53,214 nucleotides of DNA from Fidelibacterota bacterium (GCA_016783665.1 JADHWC010000005.1:1-53214); one strand, 5' to 3'; positions 135 through 49,455 are shown, counted from the stretch's first letter. Made by a program: numbers and translations. The notes: a model not told the origin generated them from the sequence alone.

Positions 135-265
135 GTAGACGACGCATCACCAACAGCGAATGTGATTTTGTTGTCCTTTCAATATTTCAAAAACGCTTCG
201 TAAACTCGCAAAATCATCAATCATAAAACAGCTTTCGCTGTTGGGTGCATGCGATTGTTATGCAG
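135..265 (-). mobile_element. attC-like integron cassette recombination site (distal R' box degenerate)
   Basis: Minus strand, just after the stop of 268..1479: CTGCATAAC-aatc-GCATGCACCCAACAGCGAA ... TTCGCTGTTGGTGATGC. Arms pair with two unpaired bases; R'' is the exact complement of GTTATGCAG at 1500-1508. Confidence 0.75.
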
Positions 266-267
266 AA

Positions 268-1479
268 TTAATCTATCTTCTTTTTAATTAGCCTTCTCAT
301 AAAATGAATCTCACCTGCTTTTATATCACATAAAATGCTTCTTTTATTATCGATCGGATAGAACAGAATATCATTTCTATAATAATAGGAGGAAATCTTA
401 TAATTTGGCTGAAAATGCACCTCGGAATATATTGGTAGAAAGGTTTGATATAAAATCAATGTACCATCAAAATAATCAAATATATTATACCCGGCTATAT
501 CGTCTGTATATTTTAGTAATTCTTGAACCTTAAATGTATTCACGTCAATCAGAATAATATCATTGGCGCTTTGTGTAATTAGCCAATTTTCATCTGATGA
601 TATAGACATTGATTTTGGCCATTTTCTGACTCCACGATTTTCATAATCGCCATAAATATAATCTCTTGATTTATACCACATTTTCTTACCACTAGCAGGA
701 TCAAAACAATAAAATCCCGATTCTTTTCCTTGGTTATATAAAATAATGTTATTTTTAGATATTGCGCTGTTTCGTCTTAAAAAGTCGAAAGGATGAAACA
801 TAAAATGTGTGATCAAAGTGTACCATAATACTTCTTCCTTTTCAGGATCATATAGAAATAAATAACTGTCGCCTGCTCTTTCTTTCATAGATCCATTCGT
901 CCATACAAGGCTGAGAATTTTATTATCAGGTGTGAACCTGAGACTATTATTATCTGAATACAATGCTGCTGGGAGTAATACTTCTTTTTTCTGGCCATTC
1001 TTTGTGTAATAATAAAACCGTGTTGGTACGTGATTGCCATATTCAATAATATATTCTCCGTCAGGAGATAAATAATAATCAAATTCAGTTTTCTTTAATT
1101 TACATAGTTCGTCTCCCTGCCTGTTTAATACAATACAACTACTATATAAATCACATAAAATTATATTGCCGTTTGAAGATACTTCTGTTCTTTCAAGAGG
1201 AATCTCCGAAAACTCCTTTTCCAAAATCAAAAAACCATCCTTTGCAATTAATCGAATGAAGTAGCTATTATCTTTTTTATATCGAACTAATATCTCATCT
1301 GTTTCTGAAGCAATATCAAACCCTAAAATCTTACCGTCAATATGTAATGATCTATAATTCTGATAATTCTCTGAAATATATTTGGAATAATTTATTCTTA
1401 CGGTATCGATATTTTGCCCTGTACAACTATGCATTACCAATAAGATAAACGATAATATATTTAGTGATATGTTATTCAT
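268..1479 (-). CDS. Cassette-borne hypothetical exported protein/lipoprotein, probable beta-propeller (PQQ/WD-like)
   Basis: Hydrophobic N-terminus ending MHSC; blade-like motifs (LSPDGEY, FDPASGKKMW, YDPEKEEVLW); AT-rich; flanked by GTTATGCAG and CTGCATAAC. Confidence 0.65.
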   Translation of the reverse strand: MNNISLNILSFILLVMHSCTGQNIDTVRINYSKYISENYQNYRSLHIDGKILGFDIASETDEILVRYKKDNSYFIRLIAKDGFLILEKEFSEIPLERTEVSSNGNIILCDLYSSCIVLNRQGDELCKLKKTEFDYYLSPDGEYIIEYGNHVPTRFYYYTKNGQKKEVLLPAALYSDNNSLRFTPDNKILSLVWTNGSMKERAGDSYLFLYDPEKEEVLWYTLITHFMFHPFDFLRRNSAISKNNIILYNQGKESGFYCFDPASGKKMWYKSRDYIYGDYENRGVRKWPKSMSISSDENWLITQSANDIILIDVNTFKVQELLKYTDDIAGYNIFDYFDGTLILYQTFLPIYSEVHFQPNYKISSYYYRNDILFYPIDNKRSILCDIKAGEIHFMRRLIKKKID

Positions 1480-1499
1480 CTGAAGTACTTTCCCCCTTA

Positions 1500-1660
1500 C
1501 TGCATAACATTGTCAATATATGGAAAACTTTCCATCATATCAGCCTTATATAGCTGGAAAACATTTCCACCTATTGACCGCATTTGATTTAAAATATGGA
1601 AAAAAGCAGATTGATTTTCCACATTTATATCATACGACTTCATGAAGTGGAAATTAACAG
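1500..1660 (-). promoter_or_regulatory. attI-like core site (GTTATGCAG) with upstream TGGAAA..TTTCCA palindrome array
   Basis: GTT core at 1506-1508 with no attC stem upstream; palindromes at 1520-1535, 1555-1569 and 1597-1621. Confidence 0.5.
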
Positions 1661-1714
1661 GGATTAACACGATAAGCAAGAACAAGTTCAGACCTGATCC
1701 AAATTCAAAGCAAT

Positions 1715-1782
1715 TACACCTGTCAGGTTTATTAGATTCTTTTTCCTCAGGTGAGATCAATTTTGTAAACCTGACAGGTGTA
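1715..1782. repeat. REPIN-like REP doublet, copy 1
   Basis: Perfect 17-bp inverted repeat TACACCTGTCAGGTTTA / TAAACCTGACAGGTGTA with 34-bp spacer. Confidence 0.85.
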
Positions 1783-2003
1783 GGTATATCCTTAACTTTT
1801 ACCGGCAGATGAAAATGATTTGGTATCAGACAATAAGCATAAATCTCTACAAAAGTCGATATATACGAATTAAGTTTTGCAAGAAAATAGAGGTAATTCG
1901 CGTCGGTGTAAAAAAGTTTATCTTCTCCATTCGCCCGGTTATAGACGTGGTAAAACTGATTCTCGATGAAAATGGGCATAGTATTTTGAGCTTTGGTGTG
2001 CAT
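1715..2003 (-). pseudogene. Truncated duplicate of the RAYT transposase N-terminal half (ORF continues to 1497 through unrelated sequence)
   Basis: Near-identical to the N-terminus of 2091..2747 up to the internal REP; keeps the HUH motif (HFH) but lacks the C-terminal Tyr region. Confidence 0.85.
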
Positions 2004-2018
2004 TGCGTTTCCTACACT

Positions 2019-2088
2019 TTAGACCTGGCAGGTTTATTAGATCCTTCCGACCCAGATAAGATTAACTGATTAAACCTGCCAGGTCTAA
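2019..2088. repeat. REPIN-like REP doublet, copy 2 (directly downstream of RAYT)
   Basis: Perfect 18-bp inverted repeat TTAGACCTGGCAGGTTTA / TAAACCTGCCAGGTCTAA; 34-bp spacer similar to copies 1 and 3. Confidence 0.85.
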
Positions 2089-2090
2089 GA

Positions 2091-2747
2091 TTATTCCAGA
2101 GAATATTTCGCTATTTCCAGATAATTGATTTTGGCGTTTCGATGGTCTTCTATAAACCGGTCTCTACCTTCGAAAATATCATAAATTGTTTTGCGAGGTA
2201 GTTTGGTCGGTTGGTTGTCAAGCAGAGCCTTATAGGAACTCCAGCGATAATTTTCGAAAGATTGTGTTATTTGATGGTGAATGGGATTCACGTGAGTATA
2301 GATGATAATCATTTTCAAATATTCTTCGGTATCAATGAGTTTTCGCTTGAATGGTTTATCAAACAGACTGCCCGAGCGGTTCTCTTGTCGGTTGATGGAT
2401 TTAGCGTAGCAGTTGAAGAAATTGGAAAAAGCCTGCGTAATTATGCTATTCCACATGTCAGGTTTATTAGGTTCTTTTTTCTCAGGTGAGATCAACTTTG
2501 TAAACCTGACAGGTGTAAGCGTAGGTATAATATCCTTAACTTTTATCAGCAGATGAAAATGGTTTGGTATCAGGCAATAAGCATAAATCTCCACAAAAGC
2601 TGATACATACGAATTAAGTTTTTCAAGAAAATAGAGGTAATTCGCATCGGTGTAAAAAAGTTTATCATCTCCATTCGCCCGATTATAGACATGGTAAAAC
2701 TGATTCTCGATGAAAAGGGCTATTGTATTTTGAGCTTTGGTGTGCAT
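2091..2747 (-). CDS. REP-associated tyrosine transposase (RAYT, IS200-like Y1 HUH)
   Basis: Motifs FYHVYNR, YAYCLIPNHFHLL (HUH), GSLF..PF, IYTHVNP (catalytic Tyr region), YRWSSY; REPs on both sides. Confidence 0.9.
   Translation of the reverse strand: MHTKAQNTIALFIENQFYHVYNRANGDDKLFYTDANYLYFLEKLNSYVSAFVEIYAYCLIPNHFHLLIKVKDIIPTLTPVRFTKLISPEKKEPNKPDMWNSIITQAFSNFFNCYAKSINRQENRSGSLFDKPFKRKLIDTEEYLKMIIIYTHVNPIHHQITQSFENYRWSSYKALLDNQPTKLPRKTIYDIFEGRDRFIEDHRNAKINYLEIAKYSLE
2451..2516. repeat. REPIN-like REP doublet, copy 3, in frame inside RAYT
   Basis: ACATGTCAGGTTTA-34 bp-TAAACCTGACAGGTGT; encodes TPVRFTKLISPEKKEPNKPDM. Confidence 0.8.
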
Positions 2748-2762
2748 CGTTTTCTACACTTT

Positions 2763-2796
2763 AGACCTGACAGGAAAAAGAAAACCTGTCAGGTCT
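2763..2796. repeat. REP doublet upstream of RAYT
   Basis: AGACCTGACAGG-aaaaagaaaa-CCTGTCAGGTCT. Confidence 0.85.
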
Positions 2797-2831
2797 TTAC
2801 ATTCTCATTCTCTCTATCTTTCATCATTTCG

Positions 2832-2971
2832 GGCGAATTCTTTAAAAAGCGATCAATCAGGTTTTCCACCAATTCATCTCCGAGAATGAAAGTCAAGGTA
2901 ATGTGCCCGTCATTCCGATGCTGTTTATTCCATAGCGCCGCAGTTTCCACGGCATTGGGATTGCGCGCCCA
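2832..2971 (-). pseudogene. Duplicated 3' end of hutU (direct repeat of 4050..4189)
   Basis: 140 bp with 7 mismatches by manual alignment; encodes WARNPNAVETAALWNKQHRNDGHITLTFILGDELVENLIDRFLKNS. Confidence 0.9.
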
Positions 2972-3025
2972 AGTGTCTCACCAGAGACCTCCGTTGAGGC
3001 GAAAGATTCGTTAGGGCTTTTCCAA

Positions 3026-3442
3026 TTAAGGTGACTTTATAATTCCGGCAAGTTCTTCAGGGGCATAGATGTTTAGAGAAGCATACTTAAAATCTTTAGT
3101 ATTTCTTGTTACAATTCCATCTATATGGCTTAGATTTGCAGATTCGTGCAATACCGCATCTTCAAAATCGGAGATGTTATGACTGCATGCAGATTCAAAT
3201 ATTGACTTATTTAATTCGGTCAGTGCAAAAATATTTAGCAGGTTTTTAATCAGCTTCTTCGCTTTATCTGATCCTTTGACTTTTGTTACTAAATAACCAA
3301 TAGTGGTTAAGGTTGTCGGACAAATATATCCTTCAATAATTCCTTGTTCAACTTCGGATAAAAGAAATGTGGCAACATTATAGTATGGTTTACGAAGAAG
3401 CAGTACGTCTAATATTACGTTCGTATCAAATAAGATTTTCAT
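3026..3442 (-). CDS. PIN-domain (VapC-like) toxin
   Basis: MKILFDTNVILD, DFEDA, IVTRNTKDF motifs; overlaps the antitoxin stop. Confidence 0.9.
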   Translation of the reverse strand: MKILFDTNVILDVLLLRKPYYNVATFLLSEVEQGIIEGYICPTTLTTIGYLVTKVKGSDKAKKLIKNLLNIFALTELNKSIFESACSHNISDFEDAVLHESANLSHIDGIVTRNTKDFKYASLNIYAPEELAGIIKSP

Positions 3443-3681
3443 AAATACTTACCTTCTAAGTATTTTTTATAATCTTTTTCATCAATATTAGAATCGACGA
3501 GAGCACCATATAAAGATTTTACATTTGGGGGTAATGCTTTGCCTTCGATAAATTCTTTTTTAGTAAGCATTCTAAAGTAATCCGCAACCATTTTAGAGAG
3601 TGATTTACCTTTTTTATCAGCAATTGTTTTTGCCAGGTTGATCAACTCGTCTTCCATTCTTAAAGTCAATTTTGTTTGCAT
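3439..3681 (-). CDS. DUF6364-family (RHH-type) antitoxin
   Basis: MQTKLTLR..ELI..AK..A..KGKSLSKMV..YF ... YLEGKYL; AGGAG RBS supports a start at 3681 rather than 3708. Confidence 0.85.
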   Translation of the reverse strand: MQTKLTLRMEDELINLAKTIADKKGKSLSKMVADYFRMLTKKEFIEGKALPPNVKSLYGALVDSNIDEKDYKKYLEGKYL

Positions 3682-3709
3682 ATCATCTCCTTGTACGTCT
3701 TCCTTCATA

Positions 3710-3738
3710 ATATTAATACGTCATATAGAAATATGCAA
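3710..3738 (-). promoter_or_regulatory. Putative sigma70 promoter of the TA cassette
   Basis: TTGCAT-17 bp-TAATAT on the minus strand. Confidence 0.45.
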
Positions 3739-3776
3739 TAACTTTTTGATTGTTCCACAATAATTTCTTTTTACAT

Positions 3777-3909
3777 GCCATAACGGATTAACTCACCGGC
3801 GCAAACTCGACCGGGAATTTGTTGTTTGATTAACGAAATATATTATGCAGACTTTCATTTTTAAAATCTCGCTACCAGCATTTTGTGTCCGGTGCAGTGG
3901 GAGTTAGAT
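3777..3909 (-). mobile_element. attC site preceding the TA cassette
   Basis: Minus strand ATCTAAC-tccc-ACTGCACCGGACACAAAA ... TTTGCGCCGGTGAGTT-aatcc-GTTATGGC; two extrahelical bases; GCCCTAAC (7/8 complement) follows the toxin stop at 3010-3017. Confidence 0.8.
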
Positions 3910-4039
3910 AGTGACAATAGATGATTCATTTCAATAGTACCATTTATTTGTTTCTGCAAAACTTTCTGTCTTTATAGTGTATAAATAAACTCATACGCTC
4001 CCGCGTTTACGCCAACATGATATCTTGCCTGTCTCATAA

Positions 4040-6073
4040 TTACTTATCTGGCGAATTCTTAAAAAAGCGCTCAATCAGGTTTTCCACCAGTTCATCTCCG
4101 GGAATGAAAGGCAAGGTAATGTGCCCGTCATTCCGATGCTGTTTATTCCATAGCGCCGCAGTTTCAACGGCGTTGGGATTGCGCGCCCAGCTGCGCCGGG
4201 CGACACCGCCCATGACGTCCCATGAAAGCCCTTTTCGAATCACTTCATCGGCTTTTTCGCTGCCGTCAAGAAGGATGCCGTTGCCTCCGTTACTGGCACG
4301 CCCGATACCGACGCCGCCGCCGTTGGAAAGTACAACGAGTGTCATTCCTCTCGCTATATTGCCGCCGAAGCACTGCACCGACATATCGGCGGTTGTCCGG
4401 CTGCCGTCGTAAATATTGGCAGTTTCCCGGAAGGGCGAGTCGGTGCCGGAGACATCATGATGATCGCGACCGAGCAGTACCGGTCCGATTTCACCGTTGC
4501 GCACCATATCGTTAAACTTCAAGGCGATGCGGATGCGACCCCCTTCGTCGGAATAGAGAATCCGACACTTTGTGCCCACTATTAGTTGATTTTCCTCGGC
4601 AGTTTCGATCCAGTGGTAATTATCGCGATGCAGCGAACTCAATTTCGGATCGATACAGGTCATAACAGCCTTATCGGTCTTATGGAGATCTTCATTCTTG
4701 CGGCTGAGACAGACCCAGCGGAATGGTCCAAAGCCTTTATCAAAGCAAACCGGGCCCATGATATCTTCCACATATGACGGCCAGATGAACCCTTCGGAAG
4801 TGTCAACCCCGTTTTGGGCGATTTCCGGGATGCCGGCGTTAAAAATGGACGCCATGAAACTATTGCCGTAATCCCAAAAATAGGAACCTTTCTGTGTGAG
4901 GTGTTTGATTACGCGATAGTGACACCTGAGCGACTGATCTACAAGTTTGCAGAATTTATCCGGATCGGATTTAATCAGTTCGCGCCCTTCATCAAAAGTT
5001 ACTCCTGCGGGAGTGTAGCCGCCTTCATAAACGGCATGACAGGATGTTTGATCGGAGATCAGTTCTACTTCGATATTTTTTTTGTCAATATATTCCAAAA
5101 GATCTACGACATTGCCATGATAGGCGATGGAAACGGCTTTTCCGGTTTGTTTATATTCCTGCATCCAGCTGGTGATCTGATCGAGATTGTCGGACACTTT
5201 GCCGACCCAACCCTGTTCGTGGCGGGTCTTGATCCGGCTGTAATCCACCTCCGCGATCACGCCGATTCCACCGGCAATTTCGACGGCTTTAGCCTGGGCG
5301 CCCGACATTCCGCCAAGACCGGAACTCACGAAGAAAATTCCTTTCAGGTCTTTATCATCGGGAATACTAAGATATTTCCTGCCGGCATTTAATAACGTAA
5401 TAAAAGTGCCATGAACAATTCCCTGGGGTCCGATATACATCCAGCCGCCGGCGGTCATCTGCCCATAATTGGAAACGCCCATGGCTGCCAATTTTTTAAA
5501 GTGTTCCGAATTATCCCATTCTCCGACAATTATACCATTAGTGGAAATAACCCTGGGAGCCATTGGACTGGAAGGAAAGAGACCAACCGGGTGACCGGAA
5601 CTGACGACCAAGGTCTGTTCTTCGGTCATGATTTCGAGATACTGTTTAATTAATAGGTATTGCATCCAGTTCTGGCATACCTGCCCGGTTTCGCCATAGG
5701 TCACCAGTTCATAAGGATAAAGCGCCACTTCGAAATCCAGATTATTATCGATATTCACCTGGAGAGCGCGGGCGGCCAGGATGCCTTTATATTCATTTAC
5801 CGGTTTGCCCCAGATACGACCTTCAGGACGATAGCGATACCCGTAAATTCGTCCCATAGTGCGCAGTTCTTCCAGAAATTCAGGCGCCAGTGTCCTGTGT
5901 AACTCTTCCGGGATATATCGAAGCGCATTTTTTAAGGCTATGACGGCTTCGTTTTTCGTTAGGTTGAAGCCGCGGTTCGGAGCGCGGCGAATGCCTTTGA
6001 CAAACTCCTTTTTGGCTGGAAGTTCTGCCGGCAGTTTTATTGTCATAGCCGACGCTATGTCGAAATTATTCAT
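4040..6073 (-). CDS. hutU: Urocanate hydratase (long ~677-aa type)
   Basis: YGQMTAGGWMYIGPQGIVHGT, GLGGMSGAQ, SDQTSCH, GRDHHDVSGTDSPFRET; GGAG RBS favours a start at 6073. Confidence 0.97.
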   Translation of the reverse strand: MNNFDIASAMTIKLPAELPAKKEFVKGIRRAPNRGFNLTKNEAVIALKNALRYIPEELHRTLAPEFLEELRTMGRIYGYRYRPEGRIWGKPVNEYKGILAARALQVNIDNNLDFEVALYPYELVTYGETGQVCQNWMQYLLIKQYLEIMTEEQTLVVSSGHPVGLFPSSPMAPRVISTNGIIVGEWDNSEHFKKLAAMGVSNYGQMTAGGWMYIGPQGIVHGTFITLLNAGRKYLSIPDDKDLKGIFFVSSGLGGMSGAQAKAVEIAGGIGVIAEVDYSRIKTRHEQGWVGKVSDNLDQITSWMQEYKQTGKAVSIAYHGNVVDLLEYIDKKNIEVELISDQTSCHAVYEGGYTPAGVTFDEGRELIKSDPDKFCKLVDQSLRCHYRVIKHLTQKGSYFWDYGNSFMASIFNAGIPEIAQNGVDTSEGFIWPSYVEDIMGPVCFDKGFGPFRWVCLSRKNEDLHKTDKAVMTCIDPKLSSLHRDNYHWIETAEENQLIVGTKCRILYSDEGGRIRIALKFNDMVRNGEIGPVLLGRDHHDVSGTDSPFRETANIYDGSRTTADMSVQCFGGNIARGMTLVVLSNGGGVGIGRASNGGNGILLDGSEKADEVIRKGLSWDVMGGVARRSWARNPNAVETAALWNKQHRNDGHITLPFIPGDELVENLIERFFKNSPDK

Positions 6074-6256
6074 GATCTGCTCCCATATTGCTTTGATCAA
6101 TCATCAACTTTACGAAAGATTTAAGGAGATATCGTGAAGTGCTATTAAATAATCCCGATGAATATCGGGACAAAGTTTGCTCTCGTCCAGGAGTCCAACA
6201 TAACCGTTGAAATTTATATGTTAGGCTGAAGTGAGAAATGTTCATCATTAAGATTT

Positions 6257-6874
6257 TCATTTTGGCAAACGTTCCTGTACCCGGGCCTGAATTGTCCCGT
6301 TTTCCAGGTATTGGTAGAGATTTTTTCCCGGGCAGAGAGTCTCGGTATAATCTTTATGTCCTTTGATGTCATACAGCGGAACATTGAATCGTTCAACTAA
6401 GTATGCCGTGAGTTCGATAATCGCTTTCATTTGAGCTTGATTTACGGTTGCGTTTTCAAAATTTCCCATCAGACAGATCAGAGCATGTCCACTGGGATCG
6501 TAATCCGTATTGGTAGCGCCGGGATAATTGATGGGTCTTATCTCATATATTACGCCGTTAGGGTCAATCATAAAATGGTAAGGAATATCGATCCACTTTT
6601 TTTCTTTACGGCTCCAATCCTGAAGTCTGCGAACATGCTCAACGGGGTCTTTTTCAGAAGGATAGTCAACCCCGCCGTGGTGGATGGTTATCTTGCTTAT
6701 TTCATGTTGAGGTAATATACCGGCGAGCGGTTTCCATTCCCAGTCGGCGCGCCGGACGACCTGCAAATGATCCGGATAACTTAATTCCAGAACCTCATAT
6801 TCTTTATGAATCGGTATGGAACACGCGCTGAAAATTAAAACTAAGATAAAGATAAAAAGCATTCCGGATTTCAT
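6257..6874 (-). CDS. N-acetylmuramoyl-L-alanine amidase (Amidase_2/PGRP-like) lipoprotein
   Basis: Lipobox IFSAC; ITIHH, DIPYHFMI, KGHKD, TLCPG. Confidence 0.85.
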   Translation of the reverse strand: MKSGMLFIFILVLIFSACSIPIHKEYEVLELSYPDHLQVVRRADWEWKPLAGILPQHEISKITIHHGGVDYPSEKDPVEHVRRLQDWSRKEKKWIDIPYHFMIDPNGVIYEIRPINYPGATNTDYDPSGHALICLMGNFENATVNQAQMKAIIELTAYLVERFNVPLYDIKGHKDYTETLCPGKNLYQYLENGTIQARVQERLPK

Positions 6875-7009
6875 CGGTTTTTCCTTTCAATGATTGCAAT
6901 TAAAGTTAGCCAATTCAAAACTTCAGTACAAACTAAAGATAACGGCTTAGTGCTTGTATGGTCAACCCTGTTTTATTAGCTTTGGCACAAATGGCGGGGG
7001 AATTTTTTT

Positions 7010-8233: not shown

Positions 8234-8266
8234 GACCGAAAATAAATTATTTTATTAAAAAAACAA

Positions 8267-8766: not shown

Positions 8767-8795
8767 TTTGCAAAATAACAATTAAGGAGGAATTC

Positions 8796-41681: not shown

Positions 41682-42958
41682 CAATATTCTGGATTATCAT
41701 ATACAACATCATTTTTGTACCTCTGGCGTTTCTTGCGCTCCAGATTCTGACGCTCTTTAATGACAAGATAAAAGAGGGAATTAAGGGACGAAAAATCACC
41801 TGGTACGACCTGAAACGATTTCGTCAGAAACACCCCAATAAACCGGTCTTTCTGGTCCATTCGGCTTCTCTGGGGGAGTTTGAACAGGCAAAGCCGGTTA
41901 TTCGGGGATTAAACGCTGTTCGCCCGGATGTGCTGATTGTTGCAAGTTTTACATCACCAAGTGGTTTCAGCCATGCGGAACGGATGTCGGAAGTGGATCT
42001 GATGATTTATCTGCCGTTCGACAGTTTCTTGGGAACACGGCGATTTATCCAGAAACTCAAACCACAAAAGATCATTTTTGTCACATACGAGTTGTGGCCC
42101 AATTTGATCCTAAATGCCAAACGGCACCATGTTTTAACTTATTTAATGTCGGCAAGAATACGGCAGAAAAGCACAAAATTCAGTCCTTTAGTACGCGGCT
42201 TTTTCCGGGAGTTATATCGATCTCTTGATTATATTTTTGCTGTTTCGGAGAAGGACCGCTTGTCTGTCAAAAAATTGATCGGAAGTGTTCAGATCAAATT
42301 ACTGACACTCGGAGATACACGTTATGATCAGGTCGTTGAACGGGCGCGGAGCAGAATAACGAATCAAATTCCACGGCTGTTTGACGAAGATTTTGTTTTT
42401 ATTATCGGCAGTATCTGGCCTCAGGACGCCAGGCATCTGCTGCCGGCGGCGGTTGAAATTTTTAAAAAATTCAATCATTTTCGATGTATCATAGCACCAC
42501 ATGAACCGAATGAGTACGCGTTGGAAAGTTTTGAAGATTACTTTAAAGGCGAAGGAATTTCTTACCTACGGTTTAGCCGGACACAAAAAAGACCTGTCGG
42601 TGAACGCATTGTTTTGATAGATAAAGTCGGGATTTTAGCGGAGCTGTATCACCAGGCGAACCTGGCATTTATTGGCGGAGGATTCCGCGGCTCGATCCAT
42701 AATGTCATGGAACCGGCAGTGGCTGGATTGCCCGTATTATTCGGACCTGATTACCACAATTCAAGAGAGGCAGAATTATTGATTGAGGCAGGCGGCGGCT
42801 TCTCCTGTGATACTGGTAAATGCCTTTTGAAACATATCAAGACATTCATTAAAGATCAAAAAGCCTATGAAGAGGCGTCTTATTCGGCGCGCAAAGTCAT
42901 CTGGGATAATATGGGAGCTTCGGCAAGAACAGTAAAAGAGATATTGGAGAATGATTGA
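41678..42958 (+). CDS. waaA: Kdo transferase
   Basis: HSASLGE, YLPFD, ELWPN, HNVMEPA. Confidence 0.88.
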   Translation: MTIFWIIIYNIIFVPLAFLALQILTLFNDKIKEGIKGRKITWYDLKRFRQKHPNKPVFLVHSASLGEFEQAKPVIRGLNAVRPDVLIVASFTSPSGFSHAERMSEVDLMIYLPFDSFLGTRRFIQKLKPQKIIFVTYELWPNLILNAKRHHVLTYLMSARIRQKSTKFSPLVRGFFRELYRSLDYIFAVSEKDRLSVKKLIGSVQIKLLTLGDTRYDQVVERARSRITNQIPRLFDEDFVFIIGSIWPQDARHLLPAAVEIFKKFNHFRCIIAPHEPNEYALESFEDYFKGEGISYLRFSRTQKRPVGERIVLIDKVGILAELYHQANLAFIGGGFRGSIHNVMEPAVAGLPVLFGPDYHNSREAELLIEAGGGFSCDTGKCLLKHIKTFIKDQKAYEEASYSARKVIWDNMGASARTVKEILEND

Positions 42959-43641
42959 GAATTCAATTAAGCGGTTTGGATTTTCAGTATAAAGTCGTAC
43001 AACAATTATTTCGGAATATCAATTTGTCCATTCCGCTTCAACGCCGGGTTGTAATTACCGGGGATAGCGGCTCCGGAAAGACGTCGCTTGTTAAACTTAT
43101 CTCCGGACTCCTGAAACCGGATAAAGGACAGATTATTTTCGAGATTAATGGCGCTGCTCAACAGGATATTCATTTCGGCTATCTCTTTCAAAATCCGGAT
43201 GATCAGTTTGTCCATTTTAATATTGAGCGAGAGCTCGCCTTTAATCTTGAAAATCGTGGTATGAGTTCCGCTGGAATGCAAGTGAAGGCTACTGAAACGC
43301 TCGAAGAGATTGATTTAATTGACAGAAAATCTGATTCGCCCAATAGCTTGTCCGGCGGTGAGAAGCAACGGCTGGCGCTGGCGGGTATGATGATCACGCA
43401 ACCGGATATTCTGATCATGGATGAACCCTGTTCCTTTCTGGATATTTTTGCACAAATTCGGCTTTATAAAAAAATTGACATGCTTGGAAAGCAGGGTGTA
43501 AGTATTATTTGGATCAGTCAGGAAACACATGAGATTCGTATGGCGGATTATGTGATTGCATTGGATCAGGGACAGGTTATTTATAGAGGAAACAGTTCGG
43601 AATACCTGAAAATATTCAGGGACAGTGACTATGAAACCTGA
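42955..43641 (+). CDS. ECF-type ABC ATPase (EcfA-like)
   Basis: GDSGSGKT, FQNPDDQF, LSGGEKQR, IMDEP. Confidence 0.85.
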   Translation: MRIQLSGLDFQYKVVQQLFRNINLSIPLQRRVVITGDSGSGKTSLVKLISGLLKPDKGQIIFEINGAAQQDIHFGYLFQNPDDQFVHFNIERELAFNLENRGMSSAGMQVKATETLEEIDLIDRKSDSPNSLSGGEKQRLALAGMMITQPDILIMDEPCSFLDIFAQIRLYKKIDMLGKQGVSIIWISQETHEIRMADYVIALDQGQVIYRGNSSEYLKIFRDSDYET

Positions 43642-44404
43642 GCTGGATATTCAAGTATCAAATATTGCGTACCGCTTTCAGCCGGAAAGCTCGTTTAATC
43701 TGGCGATCGGGGATTTGAAACACCGGTTTGACGGTGCGCTGGGAATGTACGGTTTATCCGGATCCGGGAAAACGACGTTTAGTAAGATCCTGGCGGGAAT
43801 CGTCAAACCACAGATCGGCGATCTTCATTTTTCATTCAAAAACGGAGCGGTCGAGCCACCGAAAATTTTGTACTCGCCGCAATTTCCGGAGAAGATATTT
43901 CTGGGAGTGAGAGTCAGTGATACCGTTCAACAAATTGTCGCTCAAAATCCGTTAAAAACCGATTTGCATGAGCATATAAATTTTTATCTCGATCTTTTCT
44001 TAATGAGCTATGATTCCATCAAGGCGAAATGCGGTTTTGAACTCAGCGGAGGCGAGCTCAGGCGCTTTGCAATATCTCTGAGCCTTGCGATGTCCCCGGA
44101 TCTACTGATCCTGGACGAACCCACGATCGGGATGGGACATAAGGGGAAAAATCAGCTGTATTCCGTTCTGGAAGATTTTCAACGGCAGCATCACGTTCTG
44201 ATTGTTTCGCATGATTTTGAATTGATCCGAAAAACATGCAAACATTTTTGGATATTACACCGGGGAAGTCTTATTTTTAATGGTAATTTGATTGAGTTGG
44301 ATTCTCAACATGATATAAAAAAACAGGTGGGAATTCATTTATTTGAGATGTATTTTCACAGATCGATAAGACAATTGAGGGGTCAAAGGAATTTTAAAAA
44401 GTAA
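43625..44404 (+). CDS. ECF-type ABC ATPase (EcfA'-like)
   Basis: GLSGSGKT, QFPE, LSGGELRR, ILDEP, VSHD. Confidence 0.82.
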   Translation: MTMKPELDIQVSNIAYRFQPESSFNLAIGDLKHRFDGALGMYGLSGSGKTTFSKILAGIVKPQIGDLHFSFKNGAVEPPKILYSPQFPEKIFLGVRVSDTVQQIVAQNPLKTDLHEHINFYLDLFLMSYDSIKAKCGFELSGGELRRFAISLSLAMSPDLLILDEPTIGMGHKGKNQLYSVLEDFQRQHHVLIVSHDFELIRKTCKHFWILHRGSLIFNGNLIELDSQHDIKKQVGIHLFEMYFHRSIRQLRGQRNFKK

Positions 44405-44426
44405 AGTCAGACAAAAATATGAATCT

Positions 44427-45881
44427 ATGCATCCTGATCGTGTCGTAACACTTTCAAATGTGATTTCCATATTGCGGGCATTTATGGCATTGCCTATCCT
44501 GTATTTTCTGCGGGAAGGAAAAGGGGATATTGCGCTGATATTTATTTTGATTGCCATTATTTCCGACGTTCTCGATGGCTGGCTTGCGCGAATCAGTAAT
44601 GAAATTACCGATATAGGAAAGATTCTGGACCCTGTTGCAGACAAAGTAGTGATTTTCAGTGTAATGCTATACCTCATGTTCGCGGATAGAATGCCGGCAT
44701 ATTTCTTTCTATTGTTGGCGGTTCGCGATCTTACTATTGTATTAATGGGAGTATATCTGCTGAATAACCGTAAGATCGCTCCCTATGCAAATAAACTTGG
44801 TAAAATCGCAGTTACTTTTACTTCTGCGACTGTTCTGGCATTTATTTATTCCGATATTGCCCATAATTGGGTTTTGCTGATCATGTGGATTACTATATTC
44901 TTTCTTCTGATCTCTTGGGTCCAGTATTGCCACTTCTTCGTCAGTCAGATTACCAGGGCTAAAAAAAAAACAGCAGTATCTGAACGATCCTCAAAACTTT
45001 CCAAAGGTCTGAAAAAAACCGAAAGCAGTATCGCGTCACGGATACCTCTTTTAGGTAAATTTTTTCGTATTAACAGTGATATGTTGACGTCGATTGAAGA
45101 AACGTTGATAGCTTCCGACCTGGGTGTTGACCTGACTGAAACTCTTATTGACAGGCTTAAAAATGTTGACCGGAAAGAGGCGGAAAAATTAGAAGATATT
45201 TTAAAATCCGAAATGAAATCGCTAATTAAAACCGATGAAGATATTCCCGATACGGATGCCAAACCGAGGGTTATGTTATTCGTAGGCGTGAATGGAACGG
45301 GGAAAACAACCAGCATCGGAAAACTCGCGCGAAAATTCACGTCGGAAGAAAAAAAGGTATTAATAGTTGCGGCGGATACGTTTCGTGCAGCTGCTTATGA
45401 CCAGCTCAAGGTATGGGCAGCCCGCGCTGATGCGGATTTTATGGGAAATCCAAAGGGGAAAGATCCGTCTTCAATCGCCTACGACGCAATTAAATCAGCC
45501 TTTGCAAAAGGACACGATATTGTCATGATCGATACAGCCGGTCGGCTTCATACCAGATCTAATCTGATGAATGAACTTGCCAAGATTAAGCGGGTTATCA
45601 CAAAACTGATTCCCGATGGGCCTCACGATATCTGGCTTGTTCTGGACGCTAATACGGGTCAAAACGGTATTATTCAGGCACAGGAATTCATGAACGCCGT
45701 GGGTGTAACGGGTATTATTTTGACCAAACTGGACGGTACGGCAAAAGGCGGCGTTGTTTTAGCCATTCACCATAAATTGAGCATTCCTATTCGTTATTTG
45801 GGAGTTGGAGAACAAATCGACGATCTGATTGAATTTGATCCGAATAGTTTTATTGACGCTTTGCTTACTGATAATAATTAA
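44427..45881 (+). CDS. ftsY: Fusion: CDP-alcohol phosphatidyltransferase (PgsA-like) + SRP receptor FtsY NG domain
   Basis: N-terminal DVLDGWLAR-x7-GKILDPVAD motif and TMs; C-terminal GVNGTGKTT, DTFRAAA, DTAGR, TKLDGTAKGG; single open frame. Confidence 0.9.
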   Translation: MHPDRVVTLSNVISILRAFMALPILYFLREGKGDIALIFILIAIISDVLDGWLARISNEITDIGKILDPVADKVVIFSVMLYLMFADRMPAYFFLLLAVRDLTIVLMGVYLLNNRKIAPYANKLGKIAVTFTSATVLAFIYSDIAHNWVLLIMWITIFFLLISWVQYCHFFVSQITRAKKKTAVSERSSKLSKGLKKTESSIASRIPLLGKFFRINSDMLTSIEETLIASDLGVDLTETLIDRLKNVDRKEAEKLEDILKSEMKSLIKTDEDIPDTDAKPRVMLFVGVNGTGKTTSIGKLARKFTSEEKKVLIVAADTFRAAAYDQLKVWAARADADFMGNPKGKDPSSIAYDAIKSAFAKGHDIVMIDTAGRLHTRSNLMNELAKIKRVITKLIPDGPHDIWLVLDANTGQNGIIQAQEFMNAVGVTGIILTKLDGTAKGGVVLAIHHKLSIPIRYLGVGEQIDDLIEFDPNSFIDALLTDNN

Positions 45882-45898
45882 AATAGATCCTTTAATAT

Positions 45899-47191
45899 AT
45901 GTCTGAAAAATCGTTTTCGATCATATCGCTTGGATGTCCGAAAAATACAGTCGATTCGGAAGTGCTGAAAGGATATCTCGAAAAGTTGGGTTATAACTAT
46001 CTTCAAGAACCGGAAGATGCGGATATCATTATCATAAACACCTGCGGTTTCATTGATTCGGCAAAAGAAGAATCGGTAGAAACTATCCTGGAAACAGTCG
46101 AATTAAAGAAGACAGATCCAGGTAAAAAAATCCTCATAACCGGTTGTCTGTCCCAACGCTATCCCGAGCAGCTACGAATCGAACTCCCGGAAGTGGATGG
46201 AATATTTGGAATTGACTCATGGGACAAAGTAATCGAAAATATTGTTGAAACTTCCGAACCCTGTGAAGATGTGGAACGAATCCGGTCGCTGCTGACTCCG
46301 GGACATTTTGCTTATCTGAAAATTGCGGAAGGGTGTGATAACAGCTGCAGTTTTTGTTCGATTCCCCTGATCCGGGGTCAACAGAAAAGCCGGAGCGTGG
46401 ACAGTTTATTGCGGGAGGCTGAATACTTAAGCCAAAAAGGTGTGCAGGAGCTTATCCTGATTGCCCAGGATTTGACCCGCTATGGATCGGACCTTCCATC
46501 AAGACCTGATCTATTCACATTTTTGCAGGAACTGCTGCCGATGAAATTATTTCCATGGGTTCGCTTATTGTATGCAAACCCGGATTTCTGGAATACAAAA
46601 TTAAACGCTCTTTTTCAAAAGTATCCGGAATTATGCCCATATCTCGACATACCGGTCCAGCATGCTTCACCACGAATATTGAAGTTGATGGAGCGGGGAT
46701 ATGATATTCGGAAGATCAAAAAGAAATTGCTTCGGCTCAGGCAGGAAGTTCCCACAATTGCGCTAAGAACATCCGTTATGGTGGGATTCCCGTCGGAAAG
46801 TGACGATGATTTCAATATGTTGCTGGATTTTATTGAAGATGTTCGATTCGAGCGCTTGGGAGTGTTTACCTATTCGCAGGAAGAGGATACCAAAGCTGCG
46901 GAATTGACGGATAATATTTCACCCGAGGAAAAAGAACGCCGCAAAGATATCGTGATGCAGATACAGTGGTCGATTGCACGGGAGTTCGCCGCTTCAAAAG
47001 TCGGGCAGAAAATTGATGTGATTGTTGAAGGGCAGGAGGCAGGCGGATTCCTTGGCAGGACAGTCTGGGACGCTCCGGAAATTGATGGCTTTGTAAGAAT
47101 CCATAGTGAAAAAGCGCTTGAAATTGGCAAGTTTTACAAGGTGAAAATTGATAGTGTCGAAGAGTTGGATTTGGTTGGTAAGGTCGTTTAA
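45899..47191 (+). CDS. rimO: Ribosomal protein S12 methylthiotransferase
   Basis: SLGCPKNTVDSE, NTCGFI, CDNSCSFC, DAPEIDG, TRAM domain. Confidence 0.95.
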   Translation: MSEKSFSIISLGCPKNTVDSEVLKGYLEKLGYNYLQEPEDADIIIINTCGFIDSAKEESVETILETVELKKTDPGKKILITGCLSQRYPEQLRIELPEVDGIFGIDSWDKVIENIVETSEPCEDVERIRSLLTPGHFAYLKIAEGCDNSCSFCSIPLIRGQQKSRSVDSLLREAEYLSQKGVQELILIAQDLTRYGSDLPSRPDLFTFLQELLPMKLFPWVRLLYANPDFWNTKLNALFQKYPELCPYLDIPVQHASPRILKLMERGYDIRKIKKKLLRLRQEVPTIALRTSVMVGFPSESDDDFNMLLDFIEDVRFERLGVFTYSQEEDTKAAELTDNISPEEKERRKDIVMQIQWSIAREFAASKVGQKIDVIVEGQEAGGFLGRTVWDAPEIDGFVRIHSEKALEIGKFYKVKIDSVEELDLVGKVV

Positions 47192-47223
47192 ACCTGTCAG
47201 GTTTTGGAAACCTGACAGGTTTA
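47189..47223. repeat. REP doublet of the RAYT family overlapping the rimO stop codon
   Basis: Perfect 16-bp inverted repeat TAAACCTGTCAGGTTT-tgg-AAACCTGACAGGTTTA. Confidence 0.9.
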
Positions 47224-47283
47224 GAGGTAGCGCTATTGACGACATTGATTTGATTGGAACGGTGGATGAATGATCAGTTAAAC

Positions 47284-47312
47284 TTGACAATCAAATCTTT
47301 AATGATTATACT
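47284..47312 (+). promoter_or_regulatory. Near-consensus sigma70 promoter (Pc-like) facing the cassette array
   Basis: TTGACA-17 bp-TATACT. Confidence 0.7.
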
Positions 47313-47359
47313 CTGAAGCAATGATTAAAGAAATGGAAAATGGGTTCATAATTTTGTCT

Positions 47360-47484
47360 ATAGAGAAAACTTTAAGTTTCTTGATTAAGAAACTTTCTGA
47401 AAAAGTTTCTGCATGGAGAAACTTGTTTCTAGATAGAGAAACCTGTTTCAAGCGTAAATGTGCAGTATAAACGTATGTTATGTG
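47360..47484 (+). promoter_or_regulatory. attI-like core site (GTTATGTG) with upstream AGAAAC..GTTTCT palindrome array
   Basis: Palindromes at 47365-47380, 47388-47410, 47417-47430 and 47437-47450; GTT core at 47477 complementary to CACATAAC at 48532. Confidence 0.55.
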
Positions 47485-47544
47485 TATAAAAAATATTCGA
47501 AATTACCACTTGACTAATTTATAATTAAATATTGAGGTGATGAT

Positions 47545-48522
47545 ATGCCTAAACATGAATTAGAAGAAATCGTAACTGCTATTAAAGAAAACGAAGAAGA
47601 ATTTAAAATGACTTCAAGAGACCTAATTCATTTATTTGATTGTGAAAAACGAACGAAAGGAAATCAGGCATTAATAAATAAATATCTTGATGATAACAAA
47701 TTAGAAACATGTCCTGATTATAGATCTGCTTGGATCGACAGTGAAATTATTTTACGACATAAAAAGAAAGCGAAAAGTAAGAACGAAATTGATCCGATAC
47801 AAAGAATCAAAATTTTACCAGCTGCAAATAAAGAACCTGTTACAATTAAAAAAGATGCAGAATTAAAAGAAGCCGTTACTTTAATGATGATGAATAATTT
47901 TTCTCAATTACCCGTATTAAATGGGCCTAGAAATATTGTTGGCGTAATAACATGGGAAACAATTGGGATTGGTATTACTAATGGTCTCATTTCTTCAAAA
48001 ATTAGTGATTATATATCCCCGGAAATTACTATTTTAGATTACGATACTCCTCTTTTAGAGGCGATTTCAACTGTGATACAAAAAGAGTTTGTCGTTGTTC
48101 AGAAATCAGATAGAAGTATTTGTGGTATTGTTACAGTAGCAGATATAAGTGAACAATTTTTAACTTTGACAGAGCCTTTTCTATTATTAGAACAAATAGA
48201 AAATCATATACGTCAGATATTAGATGGAAAGTTTTTAATTGAAGAGCTTAAGAATCTATGTCCTAGCGATATTACAGATAGGGAGGTTGAGCATATTGAT
48301 GATCTAAATTTTGGAGATTATATAAGATTAATAGAAAAGCCAGATAATTGGGAAAGATTGAAACTTACTATTGATAGAACCCATTTTATTAAACAACTAG
48401 ATAAAGTTAGAAAAATCCGAAATGATATAATGCATTTTGATCCAGAAGGTATTACCCAAATACAGAGAGAAGATTTAATAAAAATGTCAAAATTCTTAAC
48501 TGAAATAAGAAAATATAGTTAA
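47545..48522 (+). CDS. CBS-pair + C-terminal HEPN (Swt1-like) protein, first cassette
   Basis: CBS: EAVTLMMMNNFSQLPV..VGVITW and CGIVTVADI; HEPN: IENHIR..., LNFGDY, RKIRNDIMH (RxxxxH); GAGG RBS. Confidence 0.8.
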   Translation: MPKHELEEIVTAIKENEEEFKMTSRDLIHLFDCEKRTKGNQALINKYLDDNKLETCPDYRSAWIDSEIILRHKKKAKSKNEIDPIQRIKILPAANKEPVTIKKDAELKEAVTLMMMNNFSQLPVLNGPRNIVGVITWETIGIGITNGLISSKISDYISPEITILDYDTPLLEAISTVIQKEFVVVQKSDRSICGIVTVADISEQFLTLTEPFLLLEQIENHIRQILDGKFLIEELKNLCPSDITDREVEHIDDLNFGDYIRLIEKPDNWERLKLTIDRTHFIKQLDKVRKIRNDIMHFDPEGITQIQREDLIKMSKFLTEIRKYS

Positions 48523-48531
48523 TGTATTGTT

Positions 48532-48665
48532 CACATAACCATTGGCTGCACCTAACAGCGAAAGCTGTTCGATGAATTTAGAGATTGAGGAGTTTTTGAA
48601 AGATTTAAGAATAAAAATAGATAGCTGTTTTCCGTTCAGCGTGGCTGAGCGTTGCCCGTTATCTA
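48532..48665 (+). mobile_element. attC-like site 1 of the right array
   Basis: CACATAAC-cattg-GCTGCACCTAACAGCGAAAGCTGTT ... GCTGAGC-gttgccc-GTTATCTA; right arm partly degenerate. Confidence 0.7.
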
Positions 48666-48793
48666 AGAAAATCACAGTCGAACATATTAAATATGTGTAT
48701 TCAAGATATAACTAATAAAATCAAAAATTATATTTTGAGAATATAACAATAGTCTGTAAGACGTTAACTAAAATACTAAAATGGAGGTTTGAA

Positions 48794-49270
48794 ATGAAAA
48801 GGTGTCTCATTTTAATGTTTTTATTCCTTTTAAATGTTTGTTTTGCTCAAAATGTATACATAAAGGTGCAAGAGGAAAATTTTAGGAAGAAACCAAATGG
48901 TGAAAAAATTGGTATATTACTAAAAGGAACTGAACTCAAGCAGATTGAATCAGATGGAGAATGGATAAAGGTAGCAGTAGAGGGGTGGATATATAAACCT
49001 TCAACATCTTCGAAAAAACCAATTACTAAGTCTGTAACCAAAAAATATAGAACTGTAATGTGGGATTCAAATATATATTCAAATGCCGGTACTGAAAGAT
49101 ATGGAAATGGTAATAGTAGAAAGATCGGATCAGTTAAAAAGGGAGAAAAACTCGAGATATTAAATGAAAAACAGTTATCAGCCAAGGGAATTACTGTCCC
49201 GTGGTATTATGTTAAGCGAAGTAATGGACAAAAAGGGTGGATTTCTGATGCAGATCTGGCTTCAGAATAA
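48794..49270 (+). CDS. Exported tandem SH3b-like domain protein (cassette)
   Basis: GGAGG RBS, signal peptide, WIKV..EGWI and WYYV....GQKGWI motifs. Confidence 0.75.
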   Translation: MKRCLILMFLFLLNVCFAQNVYIKVQEENFRKKPNGEKIGILLKGTELKQIESDGEWIKVAVEGWIYKPSTSSKKPITKSVTKKYRTVMWDSNIYSNAGTERYGNGNSRKIGSVKKGEKLEILNEKQLSAKGITVPWYYVKRSNGQKGWISDADLASE

Positions 49271-49365
49271 CTATTGAATTTTAACATTCACTATTTTCAC
49301 ATTTTAAAAATAAATCATAGTTATTGATTGCAAATGAAATTATCAAGTCTTGTAGTAACCCTTTT

Positions 49366-49455
49366 TAGATAACCCTTGCGCGGATATAACGCCTTAAGCT
49401 GTTCGATGATTTTGAGTTTTGAGGATGTTGACCCTCGTATCTCGTACGTTAACTA
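49366..49455 (+). mobile_element. Degenerate attC-like site 2 of the right array
   Basis: TAGATAAC (exact complement of GTTATCTA at 48658) ... AAGCTGTTCGATGA core shared with attC1 ... GTTAACTA; weak stem. Confidence 0.5.

Follow-up and report, generated by a model that had tools for sequence, protein, structure and literature searches.

The contig studied here carries gene cassettes at both of its ends and no integrase gene beside them. How were these cassettes acquired, and do the REP repeats found next to both arrays take part in the process? The window, that is, the whole stretch of DNA that was analysed (53,214 nt), is one entire chromosomal contig of a MAG of 121 contigs and 2.38 Mb (G000), which probably belongs to the Marinisomatota (Neomarinimicrobiota), and each array runs off an assembly break. 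The initial annotation had described the same order of elements at both ends and had proposed a RAYT/REP-integron hybrid system. The order was indeed recovered at either contig end (a REP and a palindrome-rich stretch of ~210-270 bp, followed by GTTATGY, a gene of high AT content and an attC), with every element where it had first been placed or at most 2 bases away. The features are the following.

1-133, minus: start of the next left cassette; ORF begins at 94 and reads off the contig end
134-263, minus: left cassette attC (model R1, 98 bits; canonical hairpin)
268-1479, minus: left cassette gene, 403 aa, ~32% GC
1502-1693, minus: module A, orphan attI-type array head, multi-copy; core homologous to intI-adjacent DNA
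1704-2003, minus: truncated second RAYT copy, N-terminal 103 residues, 84% identical
1715-1782, no strand: REP doublet of 68 bp, two inverted ACCTGNCAGGT 51 bp apart; ends the truncated RAYT copy
2020-2087, no strand: REP doublet (ACCTGGCAGGT variant) that separates the two RAYT copies
2091-2747, minus: RAYT-like gene, 218 aa, HUH motif NHFHL (NF047646 match)
2763-2796, no strand: REP hairpin upstream of RAYT
2829-2971, minus: second copy of the hutU 3′ end (94% identity with 4047-4189)
3026-3708, minus: toxin-antitoxin cassette (DUF6364 antitoxin 3439-3708, PIN_3 toxin 3026-3442)
3778-3909, minus: divergent attC directly downstream of hutU (model R1, 20.7 bits)
3994-4036, minus: repeat 'element X', also beside array starts on C1 and C113; further copies on C74 and C57
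4040-6100, minus: hutU (urocanase), backbone gene flanking the left cassette region
45899-47191, plus: rimO, backbone gene flanking the right array
47189-47223, no strand: REP hairpin overlapping the rimO stop codon
47270-47483, plus: module B, putative orphan attI-Pc platform, multi-copy; homologous to DNA downstream of intI
47545-48522, plus: cassette 1, CBS-domain anti-phage protein, DS11 family (NF053863, Pfam CBS)
48533-48664, plus: cassette 1 attC (model R1, 101 bits)
48794-49270, plus: cassette 2, secreted SH3-domain protein
49367-49456, plus: cassette 2 attC, short (model R1, 66.6 bits)
49509-52784, plus: probable cassette 3, 1091-aa Big_7/PD40 protein, ~30% GC

Both contig ends are real integron gene-cassette arrays. 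The reading that we favour, with a probability of about 0.6, is that they are satellite arrays of the CALIN type, each headed by an orphan copy of the attI region of this lineage.

Cassettes and attC sites

The search for attC sites was carried out with our own covariance model, R1, trained on the sites of this genome. It gives 13 matches genome-wide, with three strong ones in the window, and the attC-like sites of the initial annotation are among those that pass it. The family shows clear covariation, as 75% of cells are paired vs 25-47% when the partner is slid, and compensatory changes are seen in 12 of 22 pairs. When folded as lone ssDNA, the left attC (134-263) beats its shuffles (z -2.5) and is the only one of the four window sites to do so; the two right sites and the site at 3778-3909 fold no better than shuffles. 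Two relatives have attC sites of this family after their intI-linked attI, and three have them after copies of module A.

The junctions carry the signature of site-specific crossover. For instance, R'' of the left attC (GCATAAC; R' GTCTACT) and R'' of the cassette 1 attC (ACATAAC; R' GTTATCT) are exact complements of their respective junctions, GTTATGC and GTTATGT. In turn, R'' of the cassette 2 attC (AGATAAC) exactly complements the preceding R', GTTATCT. The junction 7-mer complements R'' of the first cassette's attC in all nine arrays (five at 7/7 and four at 6/7 positions), the complementary part being, in each of the nine, the TTRRRY that follows the junction G. Homology between module copies ends at GTTA for both modules. 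Furthermore, assembled contigs of paralogous module B copies from public runs diverge after 47481 and before 48535, and in one public-run contig precisely these two points flank another insert, of 267 nt. Cassettes would thus enter at both heads by ordinary attI x attC recombination, at G|TT of GTTATGY.

At the left end, the array extends further than had been recognised. Although the features between 135 and 1731 stand as annotated, an attC at 3778-3909 had been missed (E 0.014 over the window with filters off; R'' TCTAAC, R' GTTATGG), and this site and the toxin-antitoxin cassette sit between hutU and RAYT. Consequently, the left array already starts at hutU, and RAYT and its REPs lie inside the array rather than heading it. 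An insert of ~1.1 kb has the duplicated hutU 3′ end at its far side.

As for cargo, the left cassette gene (268-1479) gave no family match, while the cassette 1 protein scores 394 bits against NF053863 (cut-off 260) and has a CBS domain by Pfam. Anti-phage genes and toxin-antitoxin pairs are typical integron cassette cargo, so the presence of both here is counted as support for the integron reading. No attC was recognised between the cassette 3 gene and the contig end.

The integrase gene and the copies of its attI regions

The absence of a tyrosine recombinase gene, reported initially, was confirmed, as none of the eight PF00589 matches of the genome falls on this contig. Each contig end has two attC sites, with no recombinase on the 53 kb. 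Elsewhere in the genome, however, there is a bona fide integron integrase gene, intI, at C86:19743-20681, which scores 483.6 bits against TIGR02249 (cut-off 265) and has no stops. The initial annotation had suggested that an IntI might serve the heads in trans; this gene, the sole intact integron integrase, most likely would insert and excise cassettes at all heads, and trans service of both arrays is probable.

Contig C86 ends at ...ATAAACGTAGTTA, exactly at its own attI GTTA, and the 194 bp after intI are all the sequence there; other arrays may yet adjoin intI beyond them. Assembly breaks fall at array junctions elsewhere too. The 193-bp tail of C86 is 98% and 97% identical in records of two relatives: in one, it is followed by GTTCTGC, a cassette and an attC with R'' GCAGAAC and, in the other, by an R1 attC of 84.5 bits. 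The C86 intI therefore adjoins a third type of attI (module C), and the components of a complete integron (intI, attC and attI) are all present genome-wide.

Modules A and B are both found next to intI in relatives. Module A contains TGGAAA/TTTCCA palindromes, and its long hairpin stops 3 nt short of the crossover core, GTTATGC at 1508-1502; the fold of 1502-1640 has a z of -5.3, with none of 200 shuffles as good. There are four copies in G000, the others being on C113, C57 and C121. In G003 and G006, a divergent intI has the core of this module 157-283 bp upstream, and the last 47 bp of the module are found beside a divergent intI at four loci (G003:C614 and G006:C22, C43 and C45). Module B has a predicted promoter (TTGACA at 47284-47289 and TATACT at 47307-47312, with 17-bp spacing), GAAAC/GTTTC repeats and the crossover core ATAAACGTAT|GTTATGT, with GTTATGT at 47477-47483; the fold of 47340-47483 has a z of -4.0, again with 0/200 shuffles as good. 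Seven copies are present in G000. In G001, G006, G008, G009 and G012, intI is followed by module B on the same strand, at a distance of 320-390 bp, and the downstream, same-strand position is shared by module C in this lineage. Of the 18 genomes of the family, 13 have module B, as against none of the 12 genomes from other families of the order, and individual relatives have up to 13 module B and up to 11 module A matches.

On sequence comparison, both platforms are paralogous copies of the attI regions of the lineage, and module B is a predicted attI with a strong Pc-type promoter. The initial description of integrase-less heads that bear a promoter and an attI-like core is supported. Copies are 74-92% identical, and those on C57 and C121 have no GTT core, so some heads may be dead.

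The comparison of rimO and hutU loci in relatives, proposed at the outset, identifies orthologues of rimO-REP-module B and of hutU-REP-module A in other genera. The REP over the rimO stop codon is conserved in four genera and so, across genera, are the REP doublets that follow hutU; the rimO hairpin is a short-loop version of the REP doublet at the equivalent place in G001 and G006. No intact intI was seen at the 8 rimO and 8 hutU loci of relatives. The first cassette at the orthologous rimO platform differs among G000, G001 and G006, which fits turnover after species divergence.

REP repeats and the origin of the array heads

The 11-bp palindrome ACCTGNCAGGT is present in 36 copies in the 2.38 Mb, vs ~1.3 expected, with eight in the window. 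The doublet 1715-1782 has the REP at 1715-1731 as its left arm; it is the REP doublet internal to the second RAYT copy, and that copy is truncated where the doublet ends. RAYTs are relatives of Y1 HUH transposases. The RAYT-like protein matches NF047646 with an E of 6.5e-12 and 45.6 bits, under the 80-bit cut-off, and has no Pfam match at E ≤0.01 and no PDB match. Its gene has REP hairpins or doublets on both sides and a further doublet, 2450-2517, in frame inside the coding sequence, as also in relatives.

The expectation that array starts should lie close to REPs was borne out in part. Four of the 13 heads of G000 have a REP 210-294 bp upstream, vs 0.31 expected (P ~2e-4), which is beyond chance; five have one within 530 bp. 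Nevertheless, most arrays have none: no REP is found within 450 bp of 9 of the 13 heads in G000 and of 16 of the 19 loci fetched in relatives, nor at intI-linked heads. The three REP-bearing loci of relatives are exclusively orthologues of rimO and hutU, which points to vertical inheritance, and no platform copy with REPs on both sides was seen in G000 or in relatives. REPs and RAYT may thus be long-standing residents of gene-end spacers that they share with the platforms, marking boundaries and truncation points. Gene truncations do coincide with REP doublets at the second RAYT copy (1715), at a recombinase fragment on C37 and at hutU in G001.

These distributions weigh against the hybrid mobile system first proposed, in which RAYT would nick REP hairpins and carry promoter+attI modules to new sites. 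The enrichment near heads, the truncations at REP doublets and the RAYT-like gene with flanking REPs that abuts module A would all be expected from it, as would the recurrence of the REP doublet-module A junction in another genus (G006:C9); the latter, however, contains a hutU 3′-like fragment and may be the same locus by descent. Given that most heads are free of REPs, those linked to intI included, that the REP loci of relatives are orthologues, that no module copy is bracketed, and that the RAYT match is under the family cut-off, we consider this explanation very improbable. There is no sign that REPs move or create platforms; they look like old neighbours of the platforms, not the engine, and the favoured reading covers their enrichment only by shared residence and descent.

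The spread of the attI copies might also be explained by loss, if the heads were once full intI-attI platforms from which intI was later deleted, with REPs marking or causing the deletion ends. Degradation of intI does occur: G006 has 12 intI matches, at least five of them with internal stops, and G000 has an N-terminal remnant of intI head-to-head with the intact gene. In G001, a small ORF separates intI from module B; the module B copies on C55 and C112 keep its 3′ end, with repeats and a REP doublet ahead. Moreover, REPs hold the position of intI relative to both modules, as the initial annotation had remarked and the relatives bear out. Yet no intI remnant lies near any orphan head in G000, and the position of the rimO REP, over the stop codon of a conserved gene and recurring in four genera, suggests a gene-end REP rather than a deletion scar. 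In the data of Cury et al., as far as the portion of the paper at hand goes, intI pseudogenes were near only 15 of 279 CALINs (PMC4889954). Such loss is accordingly unlikely as a general origin. About equally doubtful is that the arrays are fossils, that is, inactive relics (plain CALINs) kept by descent while repeats accumulate in the same permissive spacers. Orthology across genera, the degenerate state of some module copies and the weak folding of several attC sites are consistent with relics, and the available text on Xanthomonas describes CALINs at conserved loci (PMC12444791). However, first cassettes at the same head differ between close relatives, the R''/R' complementarity chains are exact, assembly breaks fall at array junctions (the C86 attI GTTA among them) and intI is intact, all of which argues against relics.

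Comparison with known systems

CALINs and SALINs are described, in the parts of the sources available, as clusters of attC sites or single sites without an integron integrase (PMC4889954; 10.1101/2022.09.11.507474). The present arrays resemble them in their attC-bounded cassettes, with no intI nearby and an IntI encoded elsewhere in the genome. They differ in that they start at attI-region paralogues, one with its own strong predicted promoter, whereas CALINs are, in those same parts, defined by attC alone and attI is called unknown for most integrons (PMC4889954; 10.1101/2022.09.11.507474). Xanthomonas CALINs are also integrase-less arrays in the same gene neighbourhoods across species, away from intI, but they belong to a different phylum, and the accessible portion of that paper mentions neither attI homology of the heads nor REP or RAYT neighbours (PMC12444791). 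The insertion at attG by IntI reported by Loot et al. likewise places cassettes outside a canonical integron with G|TT-type cleavage; in what is available of that report, ~GWT suffices and the flank is not conserved (10.1101/2022.09.11.507474). An attG reading was rejected here, as 150-230 bp upstream of the crossover are conserved among copies and relatives. Since this flank matches intI-adjacent DNA, the heads would be attI paralogues and not attG sites.

A physical link between small hairpin repeats and integron platforms is also known from MITE-flanked integrons, such as those with IMU in Enterobacter cloacae and the NFM2-MITE in Acinetobacter. According to the part of the review at hand, these MITEs flank a defective class 1 integron on both sides and are accompanied by target duplications, and transposition was shown for one of them (PMC3184786). 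Here, by contrast, there is a REP on just one side and no evident mobility, the distal array ends being beyond the contig.

The over-represented 11-bp palindrome, its inverted doublets and a RAYT-like gene flanked by REPs are shared with REP/REPIN-RAYT systems, unlike the sub-threshold match of that gene to its family and the in-frame REP doublet inside it. Finally, chromosomal integrons are known in an 'inverted' form, with intI on the cassette strand, as in Treponema denticola. The location of modules B and C downstream of intI on the same strand is alike, although this lineage also has the classical divergent arrangement, with module A, and many orphan copies.

Two candidate attI platforms and their copies

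The window is an entire contig (C88, 53,214 bp) of a genome of 121 contigs, 2.38 Mb and 41% GC, so that both array ends meet assembly breaks. GC content is 40-51% in the middle (about 4,000-47,200) and 29-33% at both ends. A direct check recovered, in place, all the features named in the initial annotation, and the feature is real. Each end carries a candidate attI platform heading a cassette array, with the backbone genes hutU and rimO flanking the left and right arrays, respectively:

1502-1693, minus strand: module A, core GTTATGC at 1508-1502; further copies in this genome on contigs C113, C57 and C121
47270-47483, plus strand: module B, core GTTATGT at 47477-47483; six further copies on C55, C66, C99, C29, C112 and C26
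47545-48522, right array: cassette 1, a DS11-family CBS-domain anti-phage protein (394 bits, cut-off 260)

With a probability of roughly 0.6, the two ends are satellite arrays of the CALIN type, on orphan attI-Pc platforms that a single IntI probably serves in trans. Judged by sequence, each platform is a paralogous copy of a predicted attI region of the lineage.

All copies of module B have in common a TTGACA-17-TATACT promoter, GAAAC/GTTTC repeats and a core (...ATAAACRTAK/GTTA), past which similarity fades, from an ungapped identity of 0.50 over the 25 nt ahead of the junction to 0.35 behind it. In five relatives (G001, G006, G008, G009 and G012), the integrase gene intI is followed on the same strand by a copy, at a distance of 320-390 bp. 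For instance, the order in G001 is intI, a 112-aa ORF, module B, GTTAGCG, a RelB/YafQ cassette and an attC of the type detected by R1, a covariance model trained on the sites of the window's own genome. Such attI regions are readable in the lineage by homology to intI-adjacent DNA and are multi-copy, with up to 13 module B matches per genome in relatives and at least one in 13 of 18 family genomes; no match came from 12 genomes of the order's other families. The 112-aa ORF (locus L027 1150-1488, minus strand, in G001) is without a Pfam match, and its last ~20 codons survive upstream of two orphan copies of module B (C55:6190-6250 and C112:9880-9935). A 49-aa ORF inside module B was rejected, as its reading frame differs between copies. 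The anti-phage cassette would hold the best-expressed position of the right array, behind the predicted module B promoter.

Module A has up to 11 matches in relatives, and at four loci there (G003:C614; G006:C22, C43 and C45) its final 47 bp are found 157-283 bp upstream of an intI in divergent orientation. Over ~190 bp, long copies in G001 agree with the window, and their divergence starts immediately past GTTA; three copies in relatives are followed by an R1 attC. The GTT is absent from the copies on C57 and C121. The palindrome-rich stretches ahead of both GTT cores are strongly structured (z for folds against shuffles -4.0 at module B and -5.3 at module A). At gathering thresholds, Rfam gave no match in the window and eight loci; thus, the conserved spacers are not known RNA families.

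Attachment sites, junctions and the integrase

The three attC-like sites of the window form one homogeneous family of ~130 nt (one site is 90 nt) and pass covariance-model scoring, a check named in the initial annotation, with the model being our own R1, built from nine sites of this genome. In the alignment of the nine, 75% of cells are paired, versus 25-47% once the 3′ partner is slid, and 12 of 22 pairs show compensatory changes; only 0-2 of 500 shuffles reach the observed values. Folded as lone single-stranded DNA, the left attC beats its shuffles (z -2.5) and the other three sites in the window do not. With filters off, R1 finds in the window the three known sites and a fourth at 3778-3909 (20.7 bits, E 0.014). 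Genome-wide there are at least 13 matches on eight contigs, 150 of 1,195 first-look candidates having been scored. Short attC-like sites (55-70 nt) of other sequence types are also present in this genome:

C106:12370-12440, minus strand
C98:13860-13925, minus strand
C99:42660-42715, plus strand
C99:41910-41967, plus strand
C29:2914-2985, plus strand

The arm AAGGATTGATAC...ATCAATCC is common to three of them. Since R1 misses these sites or scores them weakly, the true number of cassettes must exceed its 13 matches. Behind three module B copies (C55, C66 and C112), R1 with filters off finds no attC of its type; short or truncated attC-like ends are seen there by eye alone. A candidate at 52860-52935, behind a 1091-aa gene, was rejected, as its fold is no better than shuffles and R1 found nothing there. 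A generic attC scan by home-made arm complementarity was set aside because it missed even known sites.

The nine arrays examined all have, at the junction, a 7-mer complementary to R″ in the attC that belongs to the first cassette. The match is exact in the right (GTTATGT/ACATAAC) and left (GTTATGC/GCATAAC) arrays of the window, on C26 and C1 and in the intI-linked relative, and reaches six of seven positions on C29, C99 and C113 and in G001. Along the right array the chain goes on, with R′ GTTATCT matched by R″ AGATAAC of the following attC. Evidence from public runs takes the form of contigs, and gaps in cover in runs X6, X7 and X17 carry no weight. The alignment of paralogous copies breaks off after 47481 and resumes at 48535; one contig bridges these two positions with a different insert of 267 nt. 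A 710-nt contig from an independent study contains rimO, REP, module B and cassette 1 with one mismatch.

The window's contig lacks a tyrosine recombinase, as had been noticed from the sequence (PF00589 has eight matches in the genome, none on C88), and the integrase that had been supposed to lie elsewhere is encoded on contig C86 (19743-20681; TIGR02249, 483.6 bits against a cut-off of 265, no stops). Head-to-head with it lies the N-terminal remnant of a second intI (C86:19283-19607, residues ~10-109, ~50% identical). C86 ends 194 bp past intI, exactly at ...ATAAACGTAGTTA. The closest IntI-bearing public records are 91% and 81% identical. The 91% record contains this 193-bp tail at 98% identity, followed by GTTCTGC, a gene and an attC starting with GCAGAAC; read from the sequence, this order is the signature of a cassette inserted at a putative attI downstream of intI on the same strand. 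In a second record with a 97%-identical tail, an R1 attC (84.5 bits) lies one gene further on. A BLAST comparison of the C86 tail with modules A and B gave no similarity beyond the ~12-nt core, which was read by eye. Under the preferred reading, crossover between attI and attC would take place at the junction GTT, with the one IntI on C86 serving all heads in trans.

REPs, RAYT genes and the origin of the platforms

The REP core ACCTGNCAGGT has 36 copies in the genome, eight of them in the window, against ~1.3 expected from base composition. It occurs in two forms, with a palindrome spacing of 51 bp in a doublet of 66-68 bp and of 18 bp in a short hairpin. The suspected proximity of array heads to REPs holds as an enrichment and fails as a rule: 4 of 13 heads have a REP 210-294 bp upstream, whereas the other nine, the intI-linked head among them, have none within 450 bp (in a fifth head the REP is at 528 bp). 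With positions drawn at random from intergenic DNA, a mean of 0.31 heads is expected (P = 2e-4), and a null of long spacers only gives P = 4.5e-4, for 13 heads that were chosen after data inspection and include two, on C55 and C112, that are not independent, having upstream sequence in common. Among loci fetched from relatives, a REP lies within 450 bp upstream of module B in 1 of 11 and of module A in 2 of 8, and these three are the rimO and hutU loci.

A REP overlaps the rimO stop codon in G000 (the window's genome), G001, G006 and G004, with a degenerate one in G012, and is followed by module B in G000, G001, G006 and G012; the first cassette differs in each genome. After hutU, G001 and G002 have REP doublets and a 5′ portion of module A, both of which are absent from G005 and G008; in G006, a hutU 3′-like fragment precedes the REP-module A junction on C9. 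Thus, the orthology of the two loci across relatives indicates that both arrangements are old and inherited rather than fresh RAYT-mediated insertions. The left end of the window exceeds the initial description in complexity. Past hutU, it runs through element X (a repeat at 3994-4036), the attC at 3778-3909, a DUF6364/PIN toxin-antitoxin cassette, a 143-bp duplicate of the hutU 3′ end (2829-2971, 94% identical), a REP hairpin, the RAYT-like gene (2091-2747), a REP doublet, a truncated second RAYT copy ending at its internal REP doublet (1715) and module A. This order places the RAYT and its REPs inside the cassette-bearing region, not at its origin. Dispersal of attI platforms by RAYT activity, which the initial annotation had offered together with deletion of intI at REP scars and REPs as cassette hotspots, is improbable and lacks its expected signature. 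Loss of intI from duplicated platforms, which would leave orphan heads, is plausible: C55 and C112 keep the end of the ORF that sits downstream of intI in G001, and G006 has 12 TIGR02249 matches, among them at least five near-full-length intI genes and several with internal stops, on different contigs, which suggests that integron platforms have repeatedly been duplicated and have decayed in the family. We consider it improbable that the family has a distributed integron in which one IntI serves at least ten promoter-bearing attI platforms at conserved chromosomal spots, and in which these platforms arise or move through REP-bounded deletion or transposition when a RAYT, itself with an in-frame REP doublet, cuts REP doublets. 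Such an arrangement would mechanistically couple two systems acting on single-strand DNA hairpins.

The RAYT-like gene matches NF047646 with E 6.5e-12 and a score below the family cut-off. A complete REP doublet (66 bp, 22 codons, 2450-2517) lies in frame within it, between the HUH motif and the C-terminal part, and in-frame doublets are also found in relatives (for instance, L148 1728-1789), in the RAYT genes of G004 (83% identity), G012, G001 and G003. A second RAYT in the window's genome (C18:27897-28631, 43% identical) contains its own REP variant. On C37 (28940-29163), a degenerate REP doublet is followed at most ~35 bp further on by a C-terminal tyrosine recombinase fragment (PF00589 positions 107-144, E 2.4e-4), by its sequence apparently another gene truncated at a REP. 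In two genera, a BrnT/BrnA pair lies between the rimO REP and module B (L132 2527-3028 in G001; L135 in G012), replacing the -35 region of the module B promoter.

Significance and elements at gene 3′ ends

CALINs are usually treated as headless debris, and, to our knowledge, the attI sites of most chromosomal integrons are unknown. This lineage offers a concrete set of attI sequences for a non-proteobacterial integron, in which one attI type carries its own predicted strong promoter and has copies at conserved loci. If one integrase serves all platforms in trans, first-position cassettes, here including an anti-phage gene, would be expressed at many places at once, which would alter how cassette expression and turnover are modelled. 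The enriched, non-universal REP neighborhood and the REP doublet translated within RAYT are smaller curiosities on how hairpin repeats shape such regions. Earlier work describes CALINs, SALINs and attG (PMC4889954; preprint 10.1101/2022.09.11.507474), CALINs at conserved loci in Xanthomonas (PMC12444791) and MITE-flanked integrons (PMC3184786, a review). In the literature on integrons, CALINs, attI and RAYT, of which supplementary tables may hold some cases, we found no description of REP/RAYT-linked heads or dispersed attI paralogues.

Element X, a repeat of ~60 nt with a CGTTGA...TCAACG hairpin and no Rfam match, lies just past backbone genes and ahead of cassette regions at three loci, including the array starts on C1 and C113. 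In two cases, hutU and C1, an insert starting with element X is flanked by direct duplicates of the backbone gene's 3′ end:

3994-4036 (window), C1:8686-8747, C113:2741-2802, C74:11897-12213 and C57:6236-6317: element X
2829-2971 and 4047-4189 (window): hutU duplicate, 94% identical
C1:8539-8643 and C1:8826-8931: C1 duplicate, 89% identical

These duplications suggest an element that may carry a copy of its target and recombine with it to integrate at the 3′ ends of genes.
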